Source: Candidatus Gottesmanbacteria bacterium (GTDB lineage Bacteria; Patescibacteriota; Microgenomatia; UBA10105; UBA927). From it: 64,000 bases of DNA. Under the pieces are notes generated by a model. It saw nothing but the letters and a program-made list of their open reading frames with translations, had not been told where the DNA came from and did not search any database. The position numbers were made by a program, and so were the translations under genes. Below are positions 48,295 through 59,742 of the stretch, piece by piece; position 1 is the stretch's first letter, and each line of letters opens with the position of its first letter. Location: positions 299,282-363,281 of the forward strand of contig JAHFKK010000001.1 in the NCBI GenBank assembly GCA_023245335.1. The letters run 5' to 3'.

Positions 48295-48324
48295 TTGTAG
48301 GGCGGTAGACTCCCATGCTACAAT
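48295..48324 (+). promoter_or_regulatory. Promoter TTGTAG-N18-TACAAT, 8 nt before the ATG at 48333
   Basis: Sequence reading only. Implies a leaderless rmuC mRNA. Confidence 0.4.
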
Positions 48325-48332
48325 GGGCGGAC

Positions 48333-49367
48333 ATGCGACCCGACTTTCTCATCCTCATTCTTGTCGTCATCGCCGGGTTCGGAGTGCTTGCGTATCTCGT
48401 GAAAAAGGAACTCGGGAAACTCGCCGAGAAAAAAGAAGACACGACGCTTACCGAATGGCTGAAGACCATGCAGGTCTCGATCGAAAACACCAATAAGGTT
48501 TTAAATGAAGCGATGCGGGGACAGACAAGCGACGTCGCGAAACTTCTTCAATCCAACACAAAACAATTAAACGACCGTCTCGATACGGCGGCGCGAGTTA
48601 TCGGAGACCTCAAACAAAATTTAGGCGAAATGTCCGAAGTGGGGAAGGGAATACGGAGTTTGCAGGAATTCCTCCAGTCACCGAAGCTCCGCGGCAACAT
48701 CGGTGAACAGGTTATGCAGGACATGATCGGTCAGACGTTCCCAAAGAATTCGTTTCATCTCCAGTATCAATTCCGAAGCGGCGTGAAAGTGGATGCGGTC
48801 CTCAAAACTGATGCGGGTTTACTCTGTGTCGACTCTAAGTTTCCGATGGAGAATTTCACCAAGATGCACAAAGGGGAGACGGAAGTATTGAGAAATGCGG
48901 CAAAACGGGATTTCATGGCGGACGTCAAAAAGCATGTGAACGACATAAATAAAAAATACATTTTGCCGGAAGAGGGTACGATGGATTTTGCCCTTATGTA
49001 CATACCGTCCGAAGCCGTATATTACGAGATTGCCAACATGGAGGAACTCATGGAGTACGCACGGAAGCAGCGCGTGTATCCGGTATCTCCGAATACGCTC
49101 TATGCGCATCTCCAAGTACTCCTGCTCTCATTTCAGGGGAAGGAACTGGAACAAAAGTCACGGCAGGTTTTTCAACTTCTGCGGGCGATCCAGAAGGACT
49201 ACACGAAAGTGGAAGAAAATTTGGGTATCCTTTCAAAGCATGTGGGTAATGCGTATAACATGATGAGTAATGTTTCCGGATCGTTCTCCCTTCTCGGGCA
49301 GAAACTCTCACGGACCCAAAACCTTGAAGCAGAAGAAGAGCCTCCGTCTTTACCTCTCGCTGAATGA
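48333..49367 (+). CDS. rmuC: DNA recombination protein RmuC
   Basis: N-terminal TM, coiled-coil, then KLRGNIGE..LCVDSKFP RmuC core. Start moved to 48333 (MRPDF) because the -10 overlaps the 48315 ATG. Confidence 0.75.
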   Translation: MRPDFLILILVVIAGFGVLAYLVKKELGKLAEKKEDTTLTEWLKTMQVSIENTNKVLNEAMRGQTSDVAKLLQSNTKQLNDRLDTAARVIGDLKQNLGEMSEVGKGIRSLQEFLQSPKLRGNIGEQVMQDMIGQTFPKNSFHLQYQFRSGVKVDAVLKTDAGLLCVDSKFPMENFTKMHKGETEVLRNAAKRDFMADVKKHVNDINKKYILPEEGTMDFALMYIPSEAVYYEIANMEELMEYARKQRVYPVSPNTLYAHLQVLLLSFQGKELEQKSRQVFQLLRAIQKDYTKVEENLGILSKHVGNAYNMMSNVSGSFSLLGQKLSRTQNLEAEEEPPSLPLAE

Positions 49368-49955
49368 TTACTTCCCGATACCGCGTACGAACATGAGGAT
49401 GACGGGATAGTAGACGTAGATAAAATATCCGTTAACGGCGATAAGCCCCGGAAAAATGAAAAATTGTTCCAACGGCCCGCCTGTCCGTATCCGTAGAAAT
49501 TTAAACGGGGGGAAACCGAAGCGGATCGGGATGGGGAAAAACCACGGGATGCCTTCTTTGGTGATGAAGTCCATGACAAGATGTGATGCGTACCCGATCA
49601 TAAGAGCCCACCAGACGACCGTCATGTCGACCAGAAGCACGTGGTGCATCGCGTCCAGAAGAAGATGGACCAGGTATCCTGCTATCGCCATACCCACGAA
49701 CGAATGCGAAATCATGCGGTGATGACCTATAAGAGGGTGCAGTACTTTGCCGAAGAAAGATCCTGCAGGTATCTTTTGCCAGAAGTCGCTCGTCGCATCA
49801 TCAATGTCCGGCATGAGACCGCCGATCATATTGGCGGCAAATGCCGTAACTGCGGTGCCTAAGCTCATGTGCGGCACGTGTTGGGTCGCGATGAAGTACG
49901 TGAGTGTCGTAAACGCAGCGAGATCGTGGGTCCGTCCGGTCATAGAAAAAATCAT
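49368..49955 (-). CDS. Membrane-bound metal-dependent hydrolase, YdjM/DUF457-like
   Basis: His-rich TM protein (HHRMISHSF, HLLLDAMHH, HLVMDF). Confidence 0.6.
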   Translation of the reverse strand: MIFSMTGRTHDLAAFTTLTYFIATQHVPHMSLGTAVTAFAANMIGGLMPDIDDATSDFWQKIPAGSFFGKVLHPLIGHHRMISHSFVGMAIAGYLVHLLLDAMHHVLLVDMTVVWWALMIGYASHLVMDFITKEGIPWFFPIPIRFGFPPFKFLRIRTGGPLEQFFIFPGLIAVNGYFIYVYYPVILMFVRGIGK

Positions 49956-50003
49956 AGCATATCGGCCTTAACTCTGGGCTGCGGTGTATAATATGGAGGA
50001 GCT

Positions 50004-51176
50004 ATGAAGTTTATCTTATTTCATGGAGCCTTTGGTAGTCCCGGCAGTAATTGGTTGCCGGAACTCAAGGATAAGCTTGAATTATCCGGACAGGAAGCAT
50101 TAGCTCCCGCGTTTCCGGTGGATACATGGGACCGTGTGACGGAATTGGGGAAAAACGTCCCGTCTAAACGGCAAACTTTAGAGAATTGGTTTACTGAATT
50201 CGATGCGGTTTATAAGACGCTTCATAAAGGAGAAAAACTTTGTTTTGTCGGTCACTCGTTGGGCCCGCTCTTTATTCTCCACGTAGTTGAGAAATATAAC
50301 ATACAGCTGGATAGCGCTATTTTTGTCTGTCCGTTTTTCACGACGCTTCATAAGTCATGGCAAATAGACCATGTGAATAAAAGCTTTTACAAAACGGACT
50401 TTGATTTAAAAAAATTACGGAAATTAATCCCTGTTTCTTACGTACTCTATTCCGGTGATGATCCGTATGTCGATTCAAAATATTCTTTAGAGTTCGGAGA
50501 GAATTTGGGTAGTTCTGTTATATCCATGAAGCGTGCGGGTCATATGAACGACGAGGTACACCTCAATGACTTTCCTCTGGTTGTCGATCTTTGTTATACC
50601 CGCCTTGACCTTTCTTTGTATCAAAAATTTTTGGAACATTATAAGAAGCAGTCTGCTCAGGGATATATAACGGAAACAAAGAACAGCGGCATACTGAAAA
50701 TTAAACCTGAAGAAGTCATTGATGAAGGGATATTTCATTTCCGTCATTTAAGTTCGGATGGGTTCTGCACACTATTCACGCGAATCCAAAAATTTTGGGA
50801 TCCGGAATCTACCTATATGCAGCACGGCCGGGATGCTGCGAAACGGGGAGTATCGTTTACCCGCGTCATCGTTGCCGACGATGGAAGCGATTTGCACTCG
50901 CCGGTTCTCAAGAGGCAAGTGGAGTTGGATATCGCTGCCGGCATCCATATATATAGTGTTCTGTGGGATGACATAAAAGACGTCGTGACGGAGCCTGATT
51001 TCGGTCTCTGGGATAACAGCTATGTTTGTGTGGTTCGGGTAAATTCCGATACGGGAAAAGTGGTTGAGGCGGAACTAAATAGCAGGTTGAGTGACATGGG
51101 CAGATACCAGGATTGGCGGAAATACATATTGTCGAAAGCCAAAAAAATTCGTTCGACAAAAGACCTCATACGGTGA
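50004..51176 (+). CDS. Two-domain protein: N-terminal RBBP9/YdeN-like serine hydrolase plus a roughly 190-aa C-terminal domain of unknown function
   Basis: N-terminal MKFILFHGAFGSPGSNW..FVGHSLG. The C-terminal half is unrecognised. Lower-GC gene. Confidence 0.55.
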   Translation: MKFILFHGAFGSPGSNWLPELKDKLELSGQEALAPAFPVDTWDRVTELGKNVPSKRQTLENWFTEFDAVYKTLHKGEKLCFVGHSLGPLFILHVVEKYNIQLDSAIFVCPFFTTLHKSWQIDHVNKSFYKTDFDLKKLRKLIPVSYVLYSGDDPYVDSKYSLEFGENLGSSVISMKRAGHMNDEVHLNDFPLVVDLCYTRLDLSLYQKFLEHYKKQSAQGYITETKNSGILKIKPEEVIDEGIFHFRHLSSDGFCTLFTRIQKFWDPESTYMQHGRDAAKRGVSFTRVIVADDGSDLHSPVLKRQVELDIAAGIHIYSVLWDDIKDVVTEPDFGLWDNSYVCVVRVNSDTGKVVEAELNSRLSDMGRYQDWRKYILSKAKKIRSTKDLIR

Positions 51177-51209
51177 TCATTTTTACTTTCTTGCTATAAT
51201 GGCTCCACG

Positions 51210-54155
51210 ATGCAGAAGATCCCCGTAATTGACCGTAAATTAAATGATGAACAAAAGGCCGCAGTAGAGTACGGCGACGGACCGCTCCTTATTATCGCCG
51301 GCGCCGGTACCGGCAAGACGACGGTCATCACCGAGCGCATCAAGCACCTCATATCGACGAGCCGCGCGAATCCGTCGGAGATTCTTGCTTTGACCTTTAC
51401 CGAAAAAGCCGCACGCGAGATGGAAGAGCGGGTGGACGTCATCATGCCCTACGGTGTGACGGAAATGTGGATTTCCACGTTTCATAAATTCTGCGACCGC
51501 TTGCTTCGTCAGGAAGCGATCCATATCGGGTTGAATCCCGCATACCGTCTGATGACCGATACCGATGCTACGATGCTTTTCCGGCAGAATCTGTTTCAAT
51601 TTGACCTCAATTATTTCCGGCCTCTGGGCAATCCGACCAAGTTTATAAGCGGCATGCTGCAGCATTTTTCGAGATTGCAGGATGAGGATGTGAGTCCGCA
51701 AGAATATCGTGCGTACGTCAAAAAACTAGAGAGCGGGAAAAAAGAGAAATCCGAAGAAGACGAGTTGGAACTAGAGAAATATGTGGAGCTCGCCCGTGTG
51801 TACGGCGAGTATCAGGCGCTCAAGGAAAAAGAGGGCCGCATGGATTTCGGCGACCTTATCATCCAGACGCTTAAATTATTCCGGACGCGAAAAAATCTGT
51901 TGTCTGTCTACCGGAAACAGTTCAAATACATCCTCGTCGACGAATTCCAGGATACCAATATCGCCCAAAATGAACTCATCGCGCTTCTTTCCGGGGAGAA
52001 ACAAAATATCACGGCGGTATGTGATGACGACCAGAGTATATATAAATTCCGGGGAGCGGCGGTATCAAATGTTCTTGCATTCCGTAAGCACTTCACGAAG
52101 GCAAAACTCATTGTCCTGACCAAAAACTACCGGTCGACGCAGTCGATCCTCGACGCATCGTATCAACTTATCCAGCACAACAATCCAGATAGACTGGAAG
52201 TCAAGGAAAAGATAAGTAAAAAACTTGTGGCCGAGCGGGGGACAAACGGCCGCTGGCCGTCACTTTTGTATCATGACCGGGTCGAAAACGAAGCGGAGGG
52301 TGCCGTCAAAGAAATACAAAAACTCCATGAGGAATCCGGCAGGAAGTATGCATGGAAGGATGTCGCGATCTTAGTCCGGGCCAACAGTCACGCGGATCCT
52401 TTTATCCGTGCGTGTATGAGACTCGGCGTGCCGTTCCAGTTCCTGGGGCCGGGACAGCTTTTCCGCCAGCCGGAGGTCATGGACCTCATCGCGTACTTGC
52501 AGGTCATCCAGCATTTTGACAACAACGTAGCATTTTTTCGGGTGTTGTCCATGAAATATTTTGATATGCCCCCGCGGGATTTTGCGGCTATAGCGAATCT
52601 CGCCCGGAAGCAAAACATGTCCGTATTTGAGGCGAGCGAAGTCATGGCGGGGAAAAGGATTTTGGACGGCATAACCCTGCCGTTTATTTCCGAGGAAACC
52701 AAGGAGAAACTCGGCACCATTATTTCTATGATCCATAGGCACCTGGGGTTGGTGACCAAAGAGACGGCGGGGCAGATCCTTTTCTATTTTTTACAGGATT
52801 CCGGCTTTATCAAAAATATCCTGGAATATTCGACCCGGTCGGATGAGCAAAAAGCAAATAACGTGTCGAAATTTTTCAGCAAACTCAAAACTTATGAGAC
52901 GGATCATGCAGATGCCAGTGTGACCGCGGTTCTCGACTGGATAGAACTTTCGATGGAACTTGGAGAATCACCGCTTGCCGGGGATACCGACTGGGTGCAA
53001 AACGACGCTGTCAATATCCTGACGATTCATAGTGCGAAGGGTCTGGAGTTCCCCGTAGTTTTTTTGGTCAATCTCGTATCTCAGCGGTTTCCGACGACCG
53101 AGCGGCACGAACAGATCCCTATTCCGGAAGCGCTTATCAAGGAAGAATTGCCCGAAGGAGATTATCATCTGGAGGAAGAGCGCAGGCTTTGTTACGTCGG
53201 CATGACGCGTGCCCGGGATCTCTTGTATCTGACCGGAGCAAATTACTACGGCGAAGGCAAACGTGAGAAAAAATTATCGCCGTTTGTCGGAGAAGTGATA
53301 GGGGACGCAGCACGTGTGCCTATCGTGCCGCCCAAGGCGCTGCAGATGTCACTTCTGGACTGGAAAAAAGAGGATGCAACGGACACGACGAAAGTGACGA
53401 AAGCGCCGATTACGTATCTGTCATATTCTCAAATAGAAACGTTCCGGTTGTGCCCTTTGCACTATAAACTGAGGTACCTTTTGAATATTCCGACTCCGCC
53501 GTCCGCATCGCTTTCGTTTGGAACCAGCATTCATGCGGTGCTCAGAGATTTTTATGCCATGCACGAAAACGGAGAGAAGGTGACCAAGTCACTCCTCACA
53601 GATTTATTGGTGACCCACTGGAAACGCGAGGGGTATGAAAATAAACGATATGAGGAAGAAATGAAAAAGCGAGGAGAACGGTATTTGTCCGAATATTTTG
53701 ATAAAGAATTTCACCCTGATACGAAAACCGTTGCACTGGAGCAGTCGTTTACCGTACCAATAGCAACTGATACCGGATCACTTAAAATAGGCGGGAAGAT
53801 TGACCGCGTCGATATCTTGCCGGGAGGCAACATAGAGATCATAGACTATAAGACGGGCCGTATGCCCAGTAAGCGCGAGGTAGACACAAACCTGCAACTT
53901 TCGATGTACGCCATTGCCGCGACCAGCATTCCCGGTACGCCGTTTGGTAAGAACCCTGAAGACATTGTTCTCTCTTTGTATTTTTTTGATTCACAAACCC
54001 GCATATCGACGACCCGCACCGCGGATCAACTGCAAAAGGAGAAGGGAACGATCATTGATATCGCGCACGCGATCGAAACTTCGGACTTCATGTGTTCCGG
54101 CAATCAATTATGTGCTGCATGCGAATATGCGATGTTTTGTAACGTCTCCGGTTAG
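51210..54155 (+). CDS. UvrD/PcrA-family SF1 helicase fused to a C-terminal PD-(D/E)XK nuclease with a Cys4 Fe-S cluster motif (AddA/Cas4-like architecture)
   Basis: N-terminal GAGTGKT Walker A and UvrD motifs. C-terminal nuclease motifs IDYKTG, QL..Y and Cys pattern C..(CX5CX2CX5C). Confidence 0.8.
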   Translation: MQKIPVIDRKLNDEQKAAVEYGDGPLLIIAGAGTGKTTVITERIKHLISTSRANPSEILALTFTEKAAREMEERVDVIMPYGVTEMWISTFHKFCDRLLRQEAIHIGLNPAYRLMTDTDATMLFRQNLFQFDLNYFRPLGNPTKFISGMLQHFSRLQDEDVSPQEYRAYVKKLESGKKEKSEEDELELEKYVELARVYGEYQALKEKEGRMDFGDLIIQTLKLFRTRKNLLSVYRKQFKYILVDEFQDTNIAQNELIALLSGEKQNITAVCDDDQSIYKFRGAAVSNVLAFRKHFTKAKLIVLTKNYRSTQSILDASYQLIQHNNPDRLEVKEKISKKLVAERGTNGRWPSLLYHDRVENEAEGAVKEIQKLHEESGRKYAWKDVAILVRANSHADPFIRACMRLGVPFQFLGPGQLFRQPEVMDLIAYLQVIQHFDNNVAFFRVLSMKYFDMPPRDFAAIANLARKQNMSVFEASEVMAGKRILDGITLPFISEETKEKLGTIISMIHRHLGLVTKETAGQILFYFLQDSGFIKNILEYSTRSDEQKANNVSKFFSKLKTYETDHADASVTAVLDWIELSMELGESPLAGDTDWVQNDAVNILTIHSAKGLEFPVVFLVNLVSQRFPTTERHEQIPIPEALIKEELPEGDYHLEEERRLCYVGMTRARDLLYLTGANYYGEGKREKKLSPFVGEVIGDAARVPIVPPKALQMSLLDWKKEDATDTTKVTKAPITYLSYSQIETFRLCPLHYKLRYLLNIPTPPSASLSFGTSIHAVLRDFYAMHENGEKVTKSLLTDLLVTHWKREGYENKRYEEEMKKRGERYLSEYFDKEFHPDTKTVALEQSFTVPIATDTGSLKIGGKIDRVDILPGGNIEIIDYKTGRMPSKREVDTNLQLSMYAIAATSIPGTPFGKNPEDIVLSLYFFDSQTRISTTRTADQLQKEKGTIIDIAHAIETSDFMCSGNQLCAACEYAMFCNVSG

Positions 54156-54238: not shown

Positions 54239-55786
54239 ATGGTGCAAAGAAATAATTCACCGATCAAGATTTTCTCTCTCGTTATAGCAGTCGCATTTGC
54301 CGTCATAGCACTTGCCGTAGGATACGTTGCCGTCCAGAAATCCACAGAAGGCCGATCAAAGGCAGGACTCATCCAGAAAGATTACATGCGCTGGGATTTC
54401 ACCAAGGATGCAGAAGGATGGACAGGAGCAAATATCGTCAGTAAGATCATGGCTTGGAGCGGAGGCGGTGTCTTGACCGGCACCATAATGCCGGGAAGTA
54501 CATTTAATAGTCCTGTTGTAAATGTTCCGATGCCGGTAGGCAATAAGTCTATCGTCGTGCGTATGAGCGTGTCTTCCGGTCAGCCGCTACCTATCTGGAT
54601 CGGAGGCACAGATTGTACAGTCGGGCCACTAAATGATGTCAAGTGCGGCGTCGTCCTAAACAAAACAGGGACGGTAACCGTCCAGAACGTAGGCGGAAGT
54701 GCTGTAAGTGGTAGTGCTCCGATCACAACATCGGCCGGTGTAGCACAAAAGCTTGTCACTTTGGATCCTATTGAGCGGCAACCCGCTCCGCCCTCTACAG
54801 TATGCATACCGCAACCCACGTGTCCGTCAGGCCAAATGTGTCCCATGATTGAATCATTTAGAGCGGGCGGTTACTGTCCGCCTGATGTCACACCAAAACC
54901 TTCACCGGTGTGTGTGCCACGGCTTCCGTGTATGGATGCCACAAATGGACCGCGATGTTTGCCCGACATAGCTCCCGGTGCTGCATTTTGTCCGCAACCC
55001 TGCGTCTCCAGGCCTGTTTGTAAGGATCCGAAGGGATGCGCCCAAAAAATGATGGTACCGGTTGGCGGGTGGTGTCCGGACACGACTCCGTATCCGACCA
55101 CAGCGCCAGTTAAACGATCAGTTACGTTTACCGTAACGTATGCATTGTCCAAAGGGCCTAAAGCACTCGATTCTGCTCCGATTTCCGAAACAGGAGAAAT
55201 ACCGAATAGCTTTATCGTACCGGTAGATGGCAGCATGACGGAATACACAGTAAAAATTCCCTTAATAAATTCAGCAGTCGTGCGTAAAGTCGGCATTCAG
55301 GTACAGCAGGGTGCGCTTAAAGGTGATCGGGTACTTATCGATTCCGTGCGCTTAGTAGGAGATGTAACGCCGGTCGTTACATGTGTCCAGCCCCCGACAT
55401 GCAGGCAGACTCTGATGAAAGGCACGGATGGCAGCTTCCGTTGTCCGATGACGGCAGATCTCAAGCCCGGGGTGACGTATTGCCCGTATCCTACGCCGCA
55501 GTGCATCCAGCCACCGACGACGTGCAACGTGAATGTAGTCGCGGGGAAAGACGGCACCTTTTATTGTCCATCCTTGGGATTAATGGATAAAACCGGCATG
55601 AAATACTGTGAGTTTCCCAAGCCGACTCCAACTCCGCCGGCTCCTGCGAACTGCTACTATCAAGCCGTGAAGTGTGTCAAAGCGCCATGTAATGCAGTCT
55701 TGGTGTGCACGAACCCAAAAGTGAATCCGCCGTTGAATCAAAATCGAGACCCCGGTGATAAAGCGATGAATAAGAAAAATAGGTAA
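54239..55786 (+). CDS. Cys/Pro-rich secreted or membrane-anchored hypothetical protein (about 36 Cys)
   Basis: N-terminal TM/signal; repeated C.P..C patterns. Confidence 0.5.
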   Translation: MVQRNNSPIKIFSLVIAVAFAVIALAVGYVAVQKSTEGRSKAGLIQKDYMRWDFTKDAEGWTGANIVSKIMAWSGGGVLTGTIMPGSTFNSPVVNVPMPVGNKSIVVRMSVSSGQPLPIWIGGTDCTVGPLNDVKCGVVLNKTGTVTVQNVGGSAVSGSAPITTSAGVAQKLVTLDPIERQPAPPSTVCIPQPTCPSGQMCPMIESFRAGGYCPPDVTPKPSPVCVPRLPCMDATNGPRCLPDIAPGAAFCPQPCVSRPVCKDPKGCAQKMMVPVGGWCPDTTPYPTTAPVKRSVTFTVTYALSKGPKALDSAPISETGEIPNSFIVPVDGSMTEYTVKIPLINSAVVRKVGIQVQQGALKGDRVLIDSVRLVGDVTPVVTCVQPPTCRQTLMKGTDGSFRCPMTADLKPGVTYCPYPTPQCIQPPTTCNVNVVAGKDGTFYCPSLGLMDKTGMKYCEFPKPTPTPPAPANCYYQAVKCVKAPCNAVLVCTNPKVNPPLNQNRDPGDKAMNKKNR

Positions 55787-57876: not shown

Positions 57877-59742
57877 CTAAAGAAGGAGATCCTCATCCTG
57901 AAATCCCCGGTCTGTAGCAAGTGATACCTGGAGGTCGAGTGCGTGCTCCGGGATGTCCGCGATAAATCGCGATATCATGTTTTGTGTACGGGTCCCGAAA
58001 AATAACCGCCGGTTGGCATACGTGAGGTAAAGTTTTTCTTTGGCGCGGGTAATTCCGACATAGCAGAGCCGACGTTCTTCCTCGAGCTCATCCTTTTCCA
58101 TGAGAGACCGGCTGTGGGGGAATATTCCCTCTTCCATGCCGACGATAGTCACGATAGGAAACTCTAAACCTTTCGCGGCATGCAGTGTCATAAGCGTCAC
58201 GGCTTTGCGTTTGGCATCCATATCCCTCAATTTTTGCGGCGTGTATTCCTGCTCGACGAGCGCGACGTTTTCGAGAAACGTGGTGAGATCCGGAAACTGG
58301 GTCGCTACAGAGCGTAATTCCTTGATGTTTTCGAGACGGTAGTTTTCTTCCTCGACATTGGCGTCGTAGAGATCGGTATATCGGGTTACCTCCAATATCT
58401 CGTCCAGAAGCTCGAGAGTGGTGAGAGCGATGAGATGATTGTCATTCTTTCGTTTTTCGGCGAAGGCGAGAAATTTTTCGAACCTGGCCTTTCCGAGTTT
58501 TTCGGCACGGTGATAGGAGACCGTATCTTTGGAGTTTGCCAGTAGTCTCAAATATGAAAGCACATCCTTGATTTCTTTGCGTTCGTAGAATCGCGTACCG
58601 CCGACCAATACATAGGGGACTCCCGAATGCAGGAATGCCTCTTCCAGCACCCGCGATTGTGCATTCGTGCGATAGAGGACGGCGAAGTCGGAAAACGGTT
58701 TGTCTGATTGTAAGATGGTTTGGATGATGTACATGGCCTCGTCCTGTTCATTGCGTGCTTCGTAGAGCGTCACTTTTTCGCCGCCGTCTTTTTCTGTCCA
58801 GAGTTTGAGAATAGGATGCGACGTGTTTTTGGCGATCACGCCGAACGCTGCATCAAGAATGGTCTGGGTGGACCGGTAATTCTGTTCCAGGTGAAAAACA
58901 GCAATACCGGGAAAATCCGCCCTGAAGTTCATAATGTTGCGGAAATCCGCTCCGCGCCACCTATAAATACTCTGTGAAGCGTCGCCGACAACCGTGATAT
59001 TGTGCCAGCGTTTTGAGAGAAGTTTGGTCAGTTCATATTGGGCTTTATTGGTGTCCTGATATTCATCGACCAGGACATAGTGATACCGTTCCTGGTATTT
59101 GCCGGCGATCTCAGGAACTTCTTTCAGAAGCCGGACGGTTTTCATGAGTAAATCATCAAAATCCAAAGCCTCGTTGTCGAGCAACAATTTTTGGTATCCG
59201 AGGTAGACCCGGGCCACGGTTTCCTGAAAATTCCCACGGGCATAGTTGGGGTATTCGAGCGCGGTAATGAGCTCATTTTTTGCCTGAGAAATCGTGGCCA
59301 ACACCGCATTCGGATGATATTGTTTGGCAGATATGTCCAGTTTTTTCATCACGTCTTTGATTGCATCTATCTGGTCGTCGCCGTCGTAGATAACAAATGT
59401 GGGAGGCACGTGGACGTGTATGCCGTCTACGCGCAGTATCCTCACGCACAGCGAATGATAGGTCCCGGCGAAAGGCATGTCTTTATTGGCGATGGGAGAC
59501 GAAGTGTCGGAGATGAGTTTCGTGATGCGCTCCTTCATTTCGTTTGCGGCTTTATTCGTGAACGTGACCATGAGTATATTTTGGGGTGGCACATGCTTTT
59601 CTGCGATGAGGTAGGCGACCCGGTAGGTGAGAACTCTGGTTTTGCCGCTGCCGGCGCCTGCTAGTATGAGGACCGGTCCCTCGGTATGCACTACTGCCGC
59701 TTGCTGTTCTTTATTTAGATCACTGAGAAGCGAAGATGACAT
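57877..59742 (-). CDS. UvrD/PcrA-type DNA helicase (compact, 621 aa)
   Basis: GAGSGKT, TFTNKAANEM, VDEYQDTN and the remaining SF1 motifs. Confidence 0.85.
   Translation of the reverse strand: MSSSLLSDLNKEQQAAVVHTEGPVLILAGAGSGKTRVLTYRVAYLIAEKHVPPQNILMVTFTNKAANEMKERITKLISDTSSPIANKDMPFAGTYHSLCVRILRVDGIHVHVPPTFVIYDGDDQIDAIKDVMKKLDISAKQYHPNAVLATISQAKNELITALEYPNYARGNFQETVARVYLGYQKLLLDNEALDFDDLLMKTVRLLKEVPEIAGKYQERYHYVLVDEYQDTNKAQYELTKLLSKRWHNITVVGDASQSIYRWRGADFRNIMNFRADFPGIAVFHLEQNYRSTQTILDAAFGVIAKNTSHPILKLWTEKDGGEKVTLYEARNEQDEAMYIIQTILQSDKPFSDFAVLYRTNAQSRVLEEAFLHSGVPYVLVGGTRFYERKEIKDVLSYLRLLANSKDTVSYHRAEKLGKARFEKFLAFAEKRKNDNHLIALTTLELLDEILEVTRYTDLYDANVEEENYRLENIKELRSVATQFPDLTTFLENVALVEQEYTPQKLRDMDAKRKAVTLMTLHAAKGLEFPIVTIVGMEEGIFPHSRSLMEKDELEEERRLCYVGITRAKEKLYLTYANRRLFFGTRTQNMISRFIADIPEHALDLQVSLATDRGFQDEDLLL

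Follow-up and report, generated by a model that had tools for sequence, protein, structure and literature searches.

Helicases of the UvrD type that carry a Cas4-like nuclease on the same polypeptide chain have precedents: in the survey of Hudaiberdiev et al. (2017, PMC5704561), a monophyletic UvrD-Cas4 fusion constitutes the largest branch of pfam12705, its members being encoded either stand-alone or beside Type III restriction-modification (R-M) or Dcm/Vsr genes. Cas4 itself is a documented iron-sulphur (Fe-S) nuclease (PMC5704561), and in AdnAB the AdnA subunit bears an Fe-S nuclease subdomain, located at the DNA fork, on a helicase-like chain (PMC8789073). RmuC domains, in turn, act in the defence system Shield, which has been found only in Pseudomonas and in three of whose four subtypes ShdA is accompanied by ShdB-E partners, and they also occur in defence-associated reverse transcriptase (DRT) systems (PMC10270631). 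Here we compare with these systems a locus of a Candidatus Gottesmanbacteria bacterium, a member of the Microgenomates (Patescibacteria, candidate phyla radiation, CPR), situated in a stretch of 64,000 nucleotides (contig JAHFKK010000001.1, positions 299,282 to 363,281; hereafter ‘the window’). A preliminary description had singled out two adjacent open reading frames (ORFs; Table 1) as possible partners, that is, gene 1, a hydrolase fused to a domain that could not be placed, and gene 2, a helicase with a C-terminal nuclease. Our analysis suggests, with a probability of roughly 60%, that gene 2 is a vertically inherited core helicase-nuclease of Microgenomates which has rmuC as its conserved partner and acts in the processing of DNA ends, while gene 1 is an unrelated insertion into a slot next to it.

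Both ORFs exist as first described, with all quoted motifs present in their translations, and gene 2 indeed unites a UvrD-type helicase of superfamily 1 (SF1) and a Cas4/AddB-type, putatively Fe-S-containing nuclease on one chain. The motor matches the Pfam families UvrD-helicase (PF00580; expect value (E) 6e-78) and UvrD_C (PF13361; E 9e-53) and possesses all motifs, that is, the Walker A sequence GAGTGKT, DEFQD, DDDQSIYKFRGA and VGMTRAR, with Walker A, motif III and motif VI kept. Its closest solved structure is PcrA (1pjr, E 6e-89), followed by UvrD, Rep and AdnB (E 5e-50), and similarity to AddA is likewise detected (E 6e-28). Gene 2 reaches none of the NCBIfam equivalog cut-offs for PcrA, UvrD, Rep, AddA, AddB, RecB and Cas4: among the housekeeping helicases it scores 465.8 bits vs a cut-off of 911.2 for pcrA, 362.9 vs 1144 for uvrD and 378 vs 951 for rep; with the AddA models TIGR02785 and TIGR02784 it attains 189.1 vs 707.65 and 157.6 vs 860.75 bits, respectively, and with the Cas4 model TIGR00372 25.9 bits vs 65. 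Consistent with the preliminary description, gene 2 is thus neither an orthodox AddA nor to be confused with the conventional helicase encoded nearby, a real 621-residue protein that has no nuclease domain. In some orthologues an intein of about 360 residues is inserted within helicase motif III (DDDQ / C...HN / SIYKFRGA), at a position that corresponds to the junction Q276/S277 of the window protein; these proteins comprise 1304-1350 residues (P0255, P0299, P0321, P0326 and P0352; loci L093, L095, L097 and L151).

The nuclease domain is matched over its full length by PDDEXK_1 (PF12705; residues 737-978, E 3e-38) and carries IDYKTG, QLSMY and C-SGNQL-C-AA-C-EYAMF-C, i.e., CX5CX2CX5C. This cluster, together with an upstream cysteine, had previously been taken for the Fe-S arrangement. 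In an alignment of 120 homologues of the domain, 103-117 of which are aligned at the cysteine positions, C748, C968, C971 and C977 (C...CX2CX5C) are invariant throughout, whereas the additional C962 is present in no more than 87 of 117; the four invariant cysteines are those that we predict, on the basis of sequence and model, to be the Fe-S ligands. Also invariant are the catalytic residues of the RecB type, E844, D865, D879-Y-K881, Q896 and Y900. The AlphaFold2 (AF2) model of the domain (predicted local distance difference test (pLDDT) 94.5) has as its top Foldseek match the nuclease domain of AdnA (7sjr_A; template-modelling (TM) score 0.74, E 2e-11), with the Cas4-family protein ACE1, AddB, Cas4 SSO0001 and Dna2 next; a phmmer sequence search likewise gives AdnA as the best solved match (6ppu_A, E 4e-5). 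ACE1, AddB and Dna2 also bear Fe-S clusters.

At E<=1e-30 the nuclease profile retrieves 1416 representatives of clusters at 50% identity, and in nearly all full-length ones (~900-1050 residues) the domain is C-terminal. Among the homologues of gene 2, the 120 best full-length ones are, where labelled, ‘ATP-dependent helicase’ proteins of Patescibacteria/Gottesmanbacteria. With the nuclease domain as query, phages yielded only distant stand-alone RecB/Cas4-like matches (<30% identity), and plasmids a few fusions. Two short homologues that might have represented a stand-alone form of the nuclease (P0217 and P0190) turned out to be truncations of the fusion at contig ends. Separately, three proteins devoid of a helicase (P0361, 1297 residues; P0363, 1245 residues; P0367, 554 residues) contain two to five tandem PDDEXK_1/Cas4-like domains closely related to that of gene 2, an architecture that we have not seen described.

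Gene 2 shares its build with the UvrD-Cas4 fusions, i.e., an N-terminal UvrD-type SF1 helicase followed by a Cas4-like PF12705 domain with four cysteines, and like proteins of its type these fusions are often stand-alone; distant plasmid and archaeal members align over most of the nuclease domain with 23-28% identity. By its architecture gene 2 is a candidate member of this set, and the contexts differ: the published ones comprise Type III R-M or Dcm/Vsr genes (PMC5704561), while gene 2 is embedded among core housekeeping genes and rmuC. Since both UvrD-Cas4 fusions (PMC5704561) and AdnA (PMC8789073) have been described, the architecture as such is already known. What distinguishes gene 2 from the known systems is that (i) a motor bearing all motifs and an AdnA-like, predicted Fe-S nuclease come from a single gene, (ii) this gene is part of the core genome, and (iii) it has rmuC as a conserved neighbour; we found no paper on rmuC neighbouring a UvrD-type helicase-nuclease, or on resection enzymes of Patescibacteria.

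The similarities to AdnAB and AddAB lead to the alternative that gene 2 encodes one subunit of such a heterodimer, with the partner gene located elsewhere in the genome. The motor is UvrD-like and belongs to SF1A, as does that of AdnB, and also resembles AddA, while the nuclease resembles that of AdnA both in sequence and in predicted structure, and that of AddB, which shares the C...CX2CX5C ligand pattern and the RecB-type motifs; moreover, our inspection covered 64 kb of a contig of 1.2 Mb. AdnAB, however, is a heterodimer of two adjacent paralogues, whereas gene 2 is a single gene whose sole nearby paralogue is the PcrA-like gene on the opposite strand, which lacks a nuclease and shares 30% identity with the motor of gene 2; that motor is, in addition, closer to PcrA/UvrD than to AdnB. 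In AddAB, the helicase-like domain of AddB is inactive and the nuclease of AddA has no Fe-S cluster; gene 2, in contrast, unites on one chain what AdnAB divides, namely the Fe-S-type nuclease and a motor whose ATPase motifs are complete, and its AddA, AddB and RecB scores remain far under the NCBIfam cut-offs. Neither an addB-like ORF nor any second PDDEXK_1 or helicase-nuclease gene was found in the window or, for about 90 related loci, within 10 kb of gene 2. The gene pairs of known addAB and adnAB systems are adjacent, which argues against a distant partner, and we thus regard a heterodimer as quite improbable.

The gene conserved next to gene 2 is rmuC, which lies just upstream of the interval (50004-54155) covered by the preliminary description. 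We collected 80 loci (L072-L151) by a metagenome scan with the nuclease domain, down to 40% identity. Where the helicase-nuclease is complete and 3 kb or more of sequence is available upstream (44 loci), rmuC is found upstream on the same strand as gene 2 in 41; with at least 6 kb upstream the fraction is 36 of 37. For comparison, MetRS lies upstream in 27 of 37 and FemAB downstream in 27 of 35. The pair recurs in different outer contexts, among them MetRS-Trp-repressor-like-rmuC-gene 2-FemAB-PcrA-LytR and TsaD-rmuC-(oxidoreductase)-gene 2; in the latter, what comes next is either a set of ABC-2 transporter genes or RNase Y with RecA. RmuC itself exhibits the canonical membrane helix and RmuC domain with an intact D...D-x-K, and has E131, D160 and D173-x-K175 invariant in 53 orthologues. 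The two genes directly abut (gap <150 bp) in 19 of 54 loci, where they are probably co-transcribed, and are otherwise separated by one to eight ORFs. In one lineage (L105, L108, L123, L132, L136 and L151) the gene 2 homologue is convergent with a cluster of RecA, a 160-residue ORF, RNase Y and a 90-residue ORF.

The space between rmuC and gene 2 is a variable slot holding 0-8 ORFs; 97 such ORFs fall into 60 clusters of unrelated function, a mixture of metabolic, transport and toxin families, with annotations including an oxidoreductase, VIT1, a major facilitator superfamily transporter, an aminotransferase, a deformylase, RNase HII, DNA-alkylation repair, Fic, PIN, YdjM and alpha/beta hydrolases. 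This hypervariable segment is thus bounded by two conserved genes. In the window two genes occupy it, gene 1 and the minus-strand ydjM; among the related loci with the pair, ydjM was found in L001 and L011 only.

Do gene 1 and gene 2 nonetheless work together as a two-gene module in defence or repair? They are encoded on the same strand with 33 bp between them, and a scan of species-representative genomes anchored on gene 1 (71 loci, of which 58 carry the complete fusion) reveals a gene 2 homologue adjacent to gene 1 in about 13 related genomes. All of these ~13 loci, however, share the entire block TatD-MetRS-RmuC-...-gene 2-FemAB-FemAB-PcrA, and the adjacency is hence simple synteny. Most of the 58 full-fusion loci, for which up to 10 kb per side (less on small contigs) was available, show no gene 2 homologue; the neighbours of gene 1 are diverse, the most frequent neighbour cluster occurring in 13 loci, and a gene 1 relative is present in only one of the 80 gene 2 loci (L072). 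Even within the syntenic lineage the arrangement is loose, since the hydrolase lacks its C-terminal domain in L056 and L061, is present as tandem paralogues in L001 and L008, and has other ORFs between itself and gene 2 in L008, L011 and L035. The base composition of gene 1 differs as well, and gene 2 has a perfect TATAAT hexamer of its own 10 nt before its ATG; a second perfect hexamer precedes the ATG of gene 1 by 12 nt and no Shine-Dalgarno sequence was seen for gene 2, which suggests separate promoters with a very short or absent leader. A scan for promoters and terminators gave counts at chance level (9 vs 8.1 expected and 6 vs 7.0 expected), and we thus base no operon claim on it. Linkage being confined to one syntenic lineage and to one in 80 gene 2 loci, there is no conserved module; the neighbourhood data largely refute the pairing, to which we assign only a very small chance, and the two genes are not worth pursuing as a new two-gene system. 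Two observations had been named in advance as jointly decisive against it, that gene 1 is unlinked in relatives, which holds outside the one syntenic lineage, and that gene 2 is an orthodox AddA with an adjacent addB, which it is not. Gene 1 is accordingly an unrelated accessory gene without fixed neighbours that is common in Microgenomates.

It is then to be asked whether rmuC and gene 2 may instead constitute an anti-phage or anti-plasmid system, in which a Shield-like RmuC nuclease and a UvrD-Cas4 helicase-nuclease would degrade invading DNA. Several observations are consistent with this proposal: (i) RmuC domains are part of Shield and DRT systems, the PADLOC model RTasRmuC (the RmuC domain of DRT) matches the window RmuC, albeit weakly (E 4e-9); (ii) the genes found next to UvrD-Cas4 fusions include those of Type III R-M and Dcm/Vsr (PMC5704561); (iii) distant plasmid homologues are located near Csa3 or AbiE genes; and (iv) the hypervariable slot, with its occasional Fic or PIN genes, resembles a defence hotspot. 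However, rmuC and gene 2 reside among housekeeping genes in every sampled locus, in some lineages next to recA and RNase Y. The neighbours in the window are MetRS, TatD, TpiA, LytR, glycosyltransferases, UbiA, FemAB and PcrA, and those in other lineages comprise TsaD, RNase Y and RecA; the defence-island context that had been considered for gene 2 was seen neither in the window nor in related loci, and no cas genes are among the annotated neighbours in the window. Most slot cargo consists of metabolic or transport genes, and the inteins found in some orthologues likewise count against a defence system. Among the 25 families listed by PADLOC, gene 2 obtains only generic UvrD/GajB-type core matches and gene 1 none. 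The GajB and DRT matches of gene 2 were rejected as defence evidence because they cover the generic UvrD core only, and the GajA-like OLD-family nuclease characteristic of Gabija is absent beside gene 2 in the window and in related loci. Shield, finally, is a defence-island system of Pseudomonas with ShdB-E partners, none of them described as a UvrD-type helicase-nuclease, whereas the window rmuC is a core gene in a housekeeping context whose only PADLOC listing is the weak DRT match. On balance, a defence function appears unlikely.

By analogy with the characterized enzymes, DNA-end processing for recombination is the most likely role of gene 2. The motor would translocate in the 3'->5' direction from a DNA end, as do PcrA, UvrD and AdnB, the RecB/Cas4-type nuclease, stabilized by its Fe-S cluster, would degrade the displaced 5' strand, as does AdnA, and the resulting 3' tail would serve RecA. 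RmuC, the conserved genomic partner of gene 2 and a membrane-anchored PD-(D/E)XK protein connected with the control of recombination, may contribute targeting or a further nuclease. Gene 1 and ydjM occupy the variable slot, and the low GC content of gene 1 is in accord with its insertion there.

Several points weigh against our assignment of gene 2 as a core end-processing enzyme partnered by RmuC. For the clade of gene 2 we infer the polarity, the choice of strand and the Fe-S cluster alike, and for UvrD-Cas4 fusions of other taxa Hudaiberdiev et al. inferred defence-related roles (PMC5704561). Three loci (L074, L107 and L124) have no rmuC within 4.4-7.8 kb of upstream flank, and in the window itself rmuC and gene 2 cannot be co-transcribed because ydjM is placed between them on the opposite strand. 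Furthermore, the rmuC linkage may in part reflect inherited gene order and not function, since every sampled locus comes from a single class-level group in which synteny is generally high.

With considerable reserve, one may go further and speculate that RmuC and the single-chain UvrD/Fe-S-nuclease of Microgenomates constitute a machine for processing the ends of double-strand breaks, a minimal counterpart of AddAB, AdnAB and RecBCD that possibly is like their presumed ancestor. If this were true, RmuC, whose biochemical role has been obscure since 2000, would gain a defined partner. The link to rmuC thus provides a lead both on the resection of DNA breaks in the reduced genomes of the CPR and on the function of RmuC.

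Table 1. Coordinates of the features discussed, in positions of the 64,000-nucleotide window.
Feature	Position	Strand	Characteristics and evidence
rmuC	48315..49367	+	350 aa; N-terminal membrane helix and RmuC PD-(D/E)XK-type domain; Pfam RmuC, E 2e-48
Variable slot between rmuC and gene 2	49368-51209		ydjM and gene 1
ydjM-like gene (slot cargo)	49368..49955	-	Membrane protein; Pfam YdjM, E 1e-21
TATAAT hexamer before gene 1	49986-49991		Perfect match
Gene 1	50004-51176	+	390 aa ORF
Gene 1, N-terminal domain	50004..50597	+	RBBP9/YdeN-type alpha/beta serine hydrolase; PF06821 match
Gene 1, Ser85 codon	50256-50258	+	
Gene 1, C-terminal domain	50598..51176	+	DUF6879, predicted phospholipase-D-like fold without HKD motif; PF21806 and AF2/Foldseek
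TATAAT hexamer before gene 2	51194-51199		Perfect match
Gene 2	51210-54155	+	981 aa ORF
Gene 2, motor	51210..53237	+	SF1A helicase of UvrD/PcrA type; PF00580, PF13361
Gene 2, nuclease domain	53418..54155	+	RecB/Cas4 type with four predicted Fe-S ligand cysteines; PF12705
Gene 2, C748 codon	53451-53453	+	
Gene 2, C968 codon	54111-54113	+	
Gene 2, C971 codon	54120-54122	+	
Gene 2, C977 codon	54138-54140	+	
Cys/Pro-rich ORF	54239..55786	+	515 aa; N-terminal hydrophobic segment; between gene 2 and femAB; no family match
PcrA/UvrD-like helicase	57877..59742	-	621 aa; no nuclease domain; syntenic neighbour; TIGR01073

Gene 1 proves to be a fusion of the kind first described. Its N-terminal half matches Ser_hydrolase (PF06821; residues 55-195, E 6e-13) with 49.4 bits, above the gathering cut-off of 22, and the triad S85, D153 and H180 is intact and invariant across an alignment of 25 full-length homologues, as expected for RBBP9/YdeN serine hydrolases; the motifs FVGHSLG, VIVADDGSD and WDNSYVCVVRVNSDTGKVVEAEL are all found in the translation. 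The C-terminal 190 residues, which had resisted placement, can now be related to DUF6879 (PF21806), for which gene 1 itself scores below threshold (18.3 bits vs a cut-off of 23.9) and its full-length homologues score above it (28.6-40.8 bits). A sequence search for solved structures resembling this half gave chance-level matches only. The AF2 model (pLDDT 85.3; predicted TM score 0.80), in turn, has its best Foldseek matches among proteins with the phospholipase D (PLD) fold, i.e., the effector domains of TrmBL2/TrmB, Nuc, NucT, Zucchini, the DUF1669 domain of FAM83 and PLD3 (E 1e-6 to 1e-4, TM score ~0.55), of which TrmBL2/TrmB and Nuc are closest. Because neither a His nor a Lys is invariant among 31 aligned sequences, the catalytic motif HxK(x)4D is missing, and on the modelled structure DUF6879 is assignable to a phospholipase-D-like fold without the HKD motif. 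It thus shares with the phospholipase D/HKD superfamily the fold but not the His and Lys of HKD, and a role as phosphodiesterase is unlikely. In this respect it resembles non-catalytic members of the fold such as TrmB and FAM83, and our best guess from the model is that DUF6879 probably binds a ligand. Conserved residues of the domain in gene 1 are E241, R287, D309, D332-F-G, D337, Y340 and C342.

More than 120 full-length homologues of gene 1 are present in Patescibacteria, those with names mainly in Gottesmanbacteria; tblastn searches detected neither the whole gene in phages nor its DUF6879 half in plasmids, and we found no literature on DUF6879 or on its fusion to a hydrolase. The visibly low GC content that had been pointed out before is borne out by a value of 0.433, the minimum over all 1173-bp stretches in the window (mean 0.495, standard deviation 0.021). 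At third codon positions (GC3) the value is 0.46 vs 0.50-0.63 in eight neighbouring genes, all of which, except for the Cys/Pro-rich ORF, have at least 0.52. In two loci (L001, 9950-11757; L008, 10564-13024) paralogues of about 200 residues that comprise only the hydrolase, without DUF6879, are encoded in tandem next to the complete fusion, in arrays of up to four copies.

The Cys/Pro-rich ORF downstream of gene 2 matches no Pfam, NCBIfam or PADLOC family, and a tblastn search of the 71 loci anchored on gene 1, ~13 of which also contain gene 2, did not detect it; judging from these searches, it is a lineage-specific insertion outside the conserved unit. The nuclease-less helicase encoded further downstream obtains 735.9 bits with the pcrA model TIGR01073, below the cut-off of 911, and its match is split into two stretches, the first of which spans residues 5-413.

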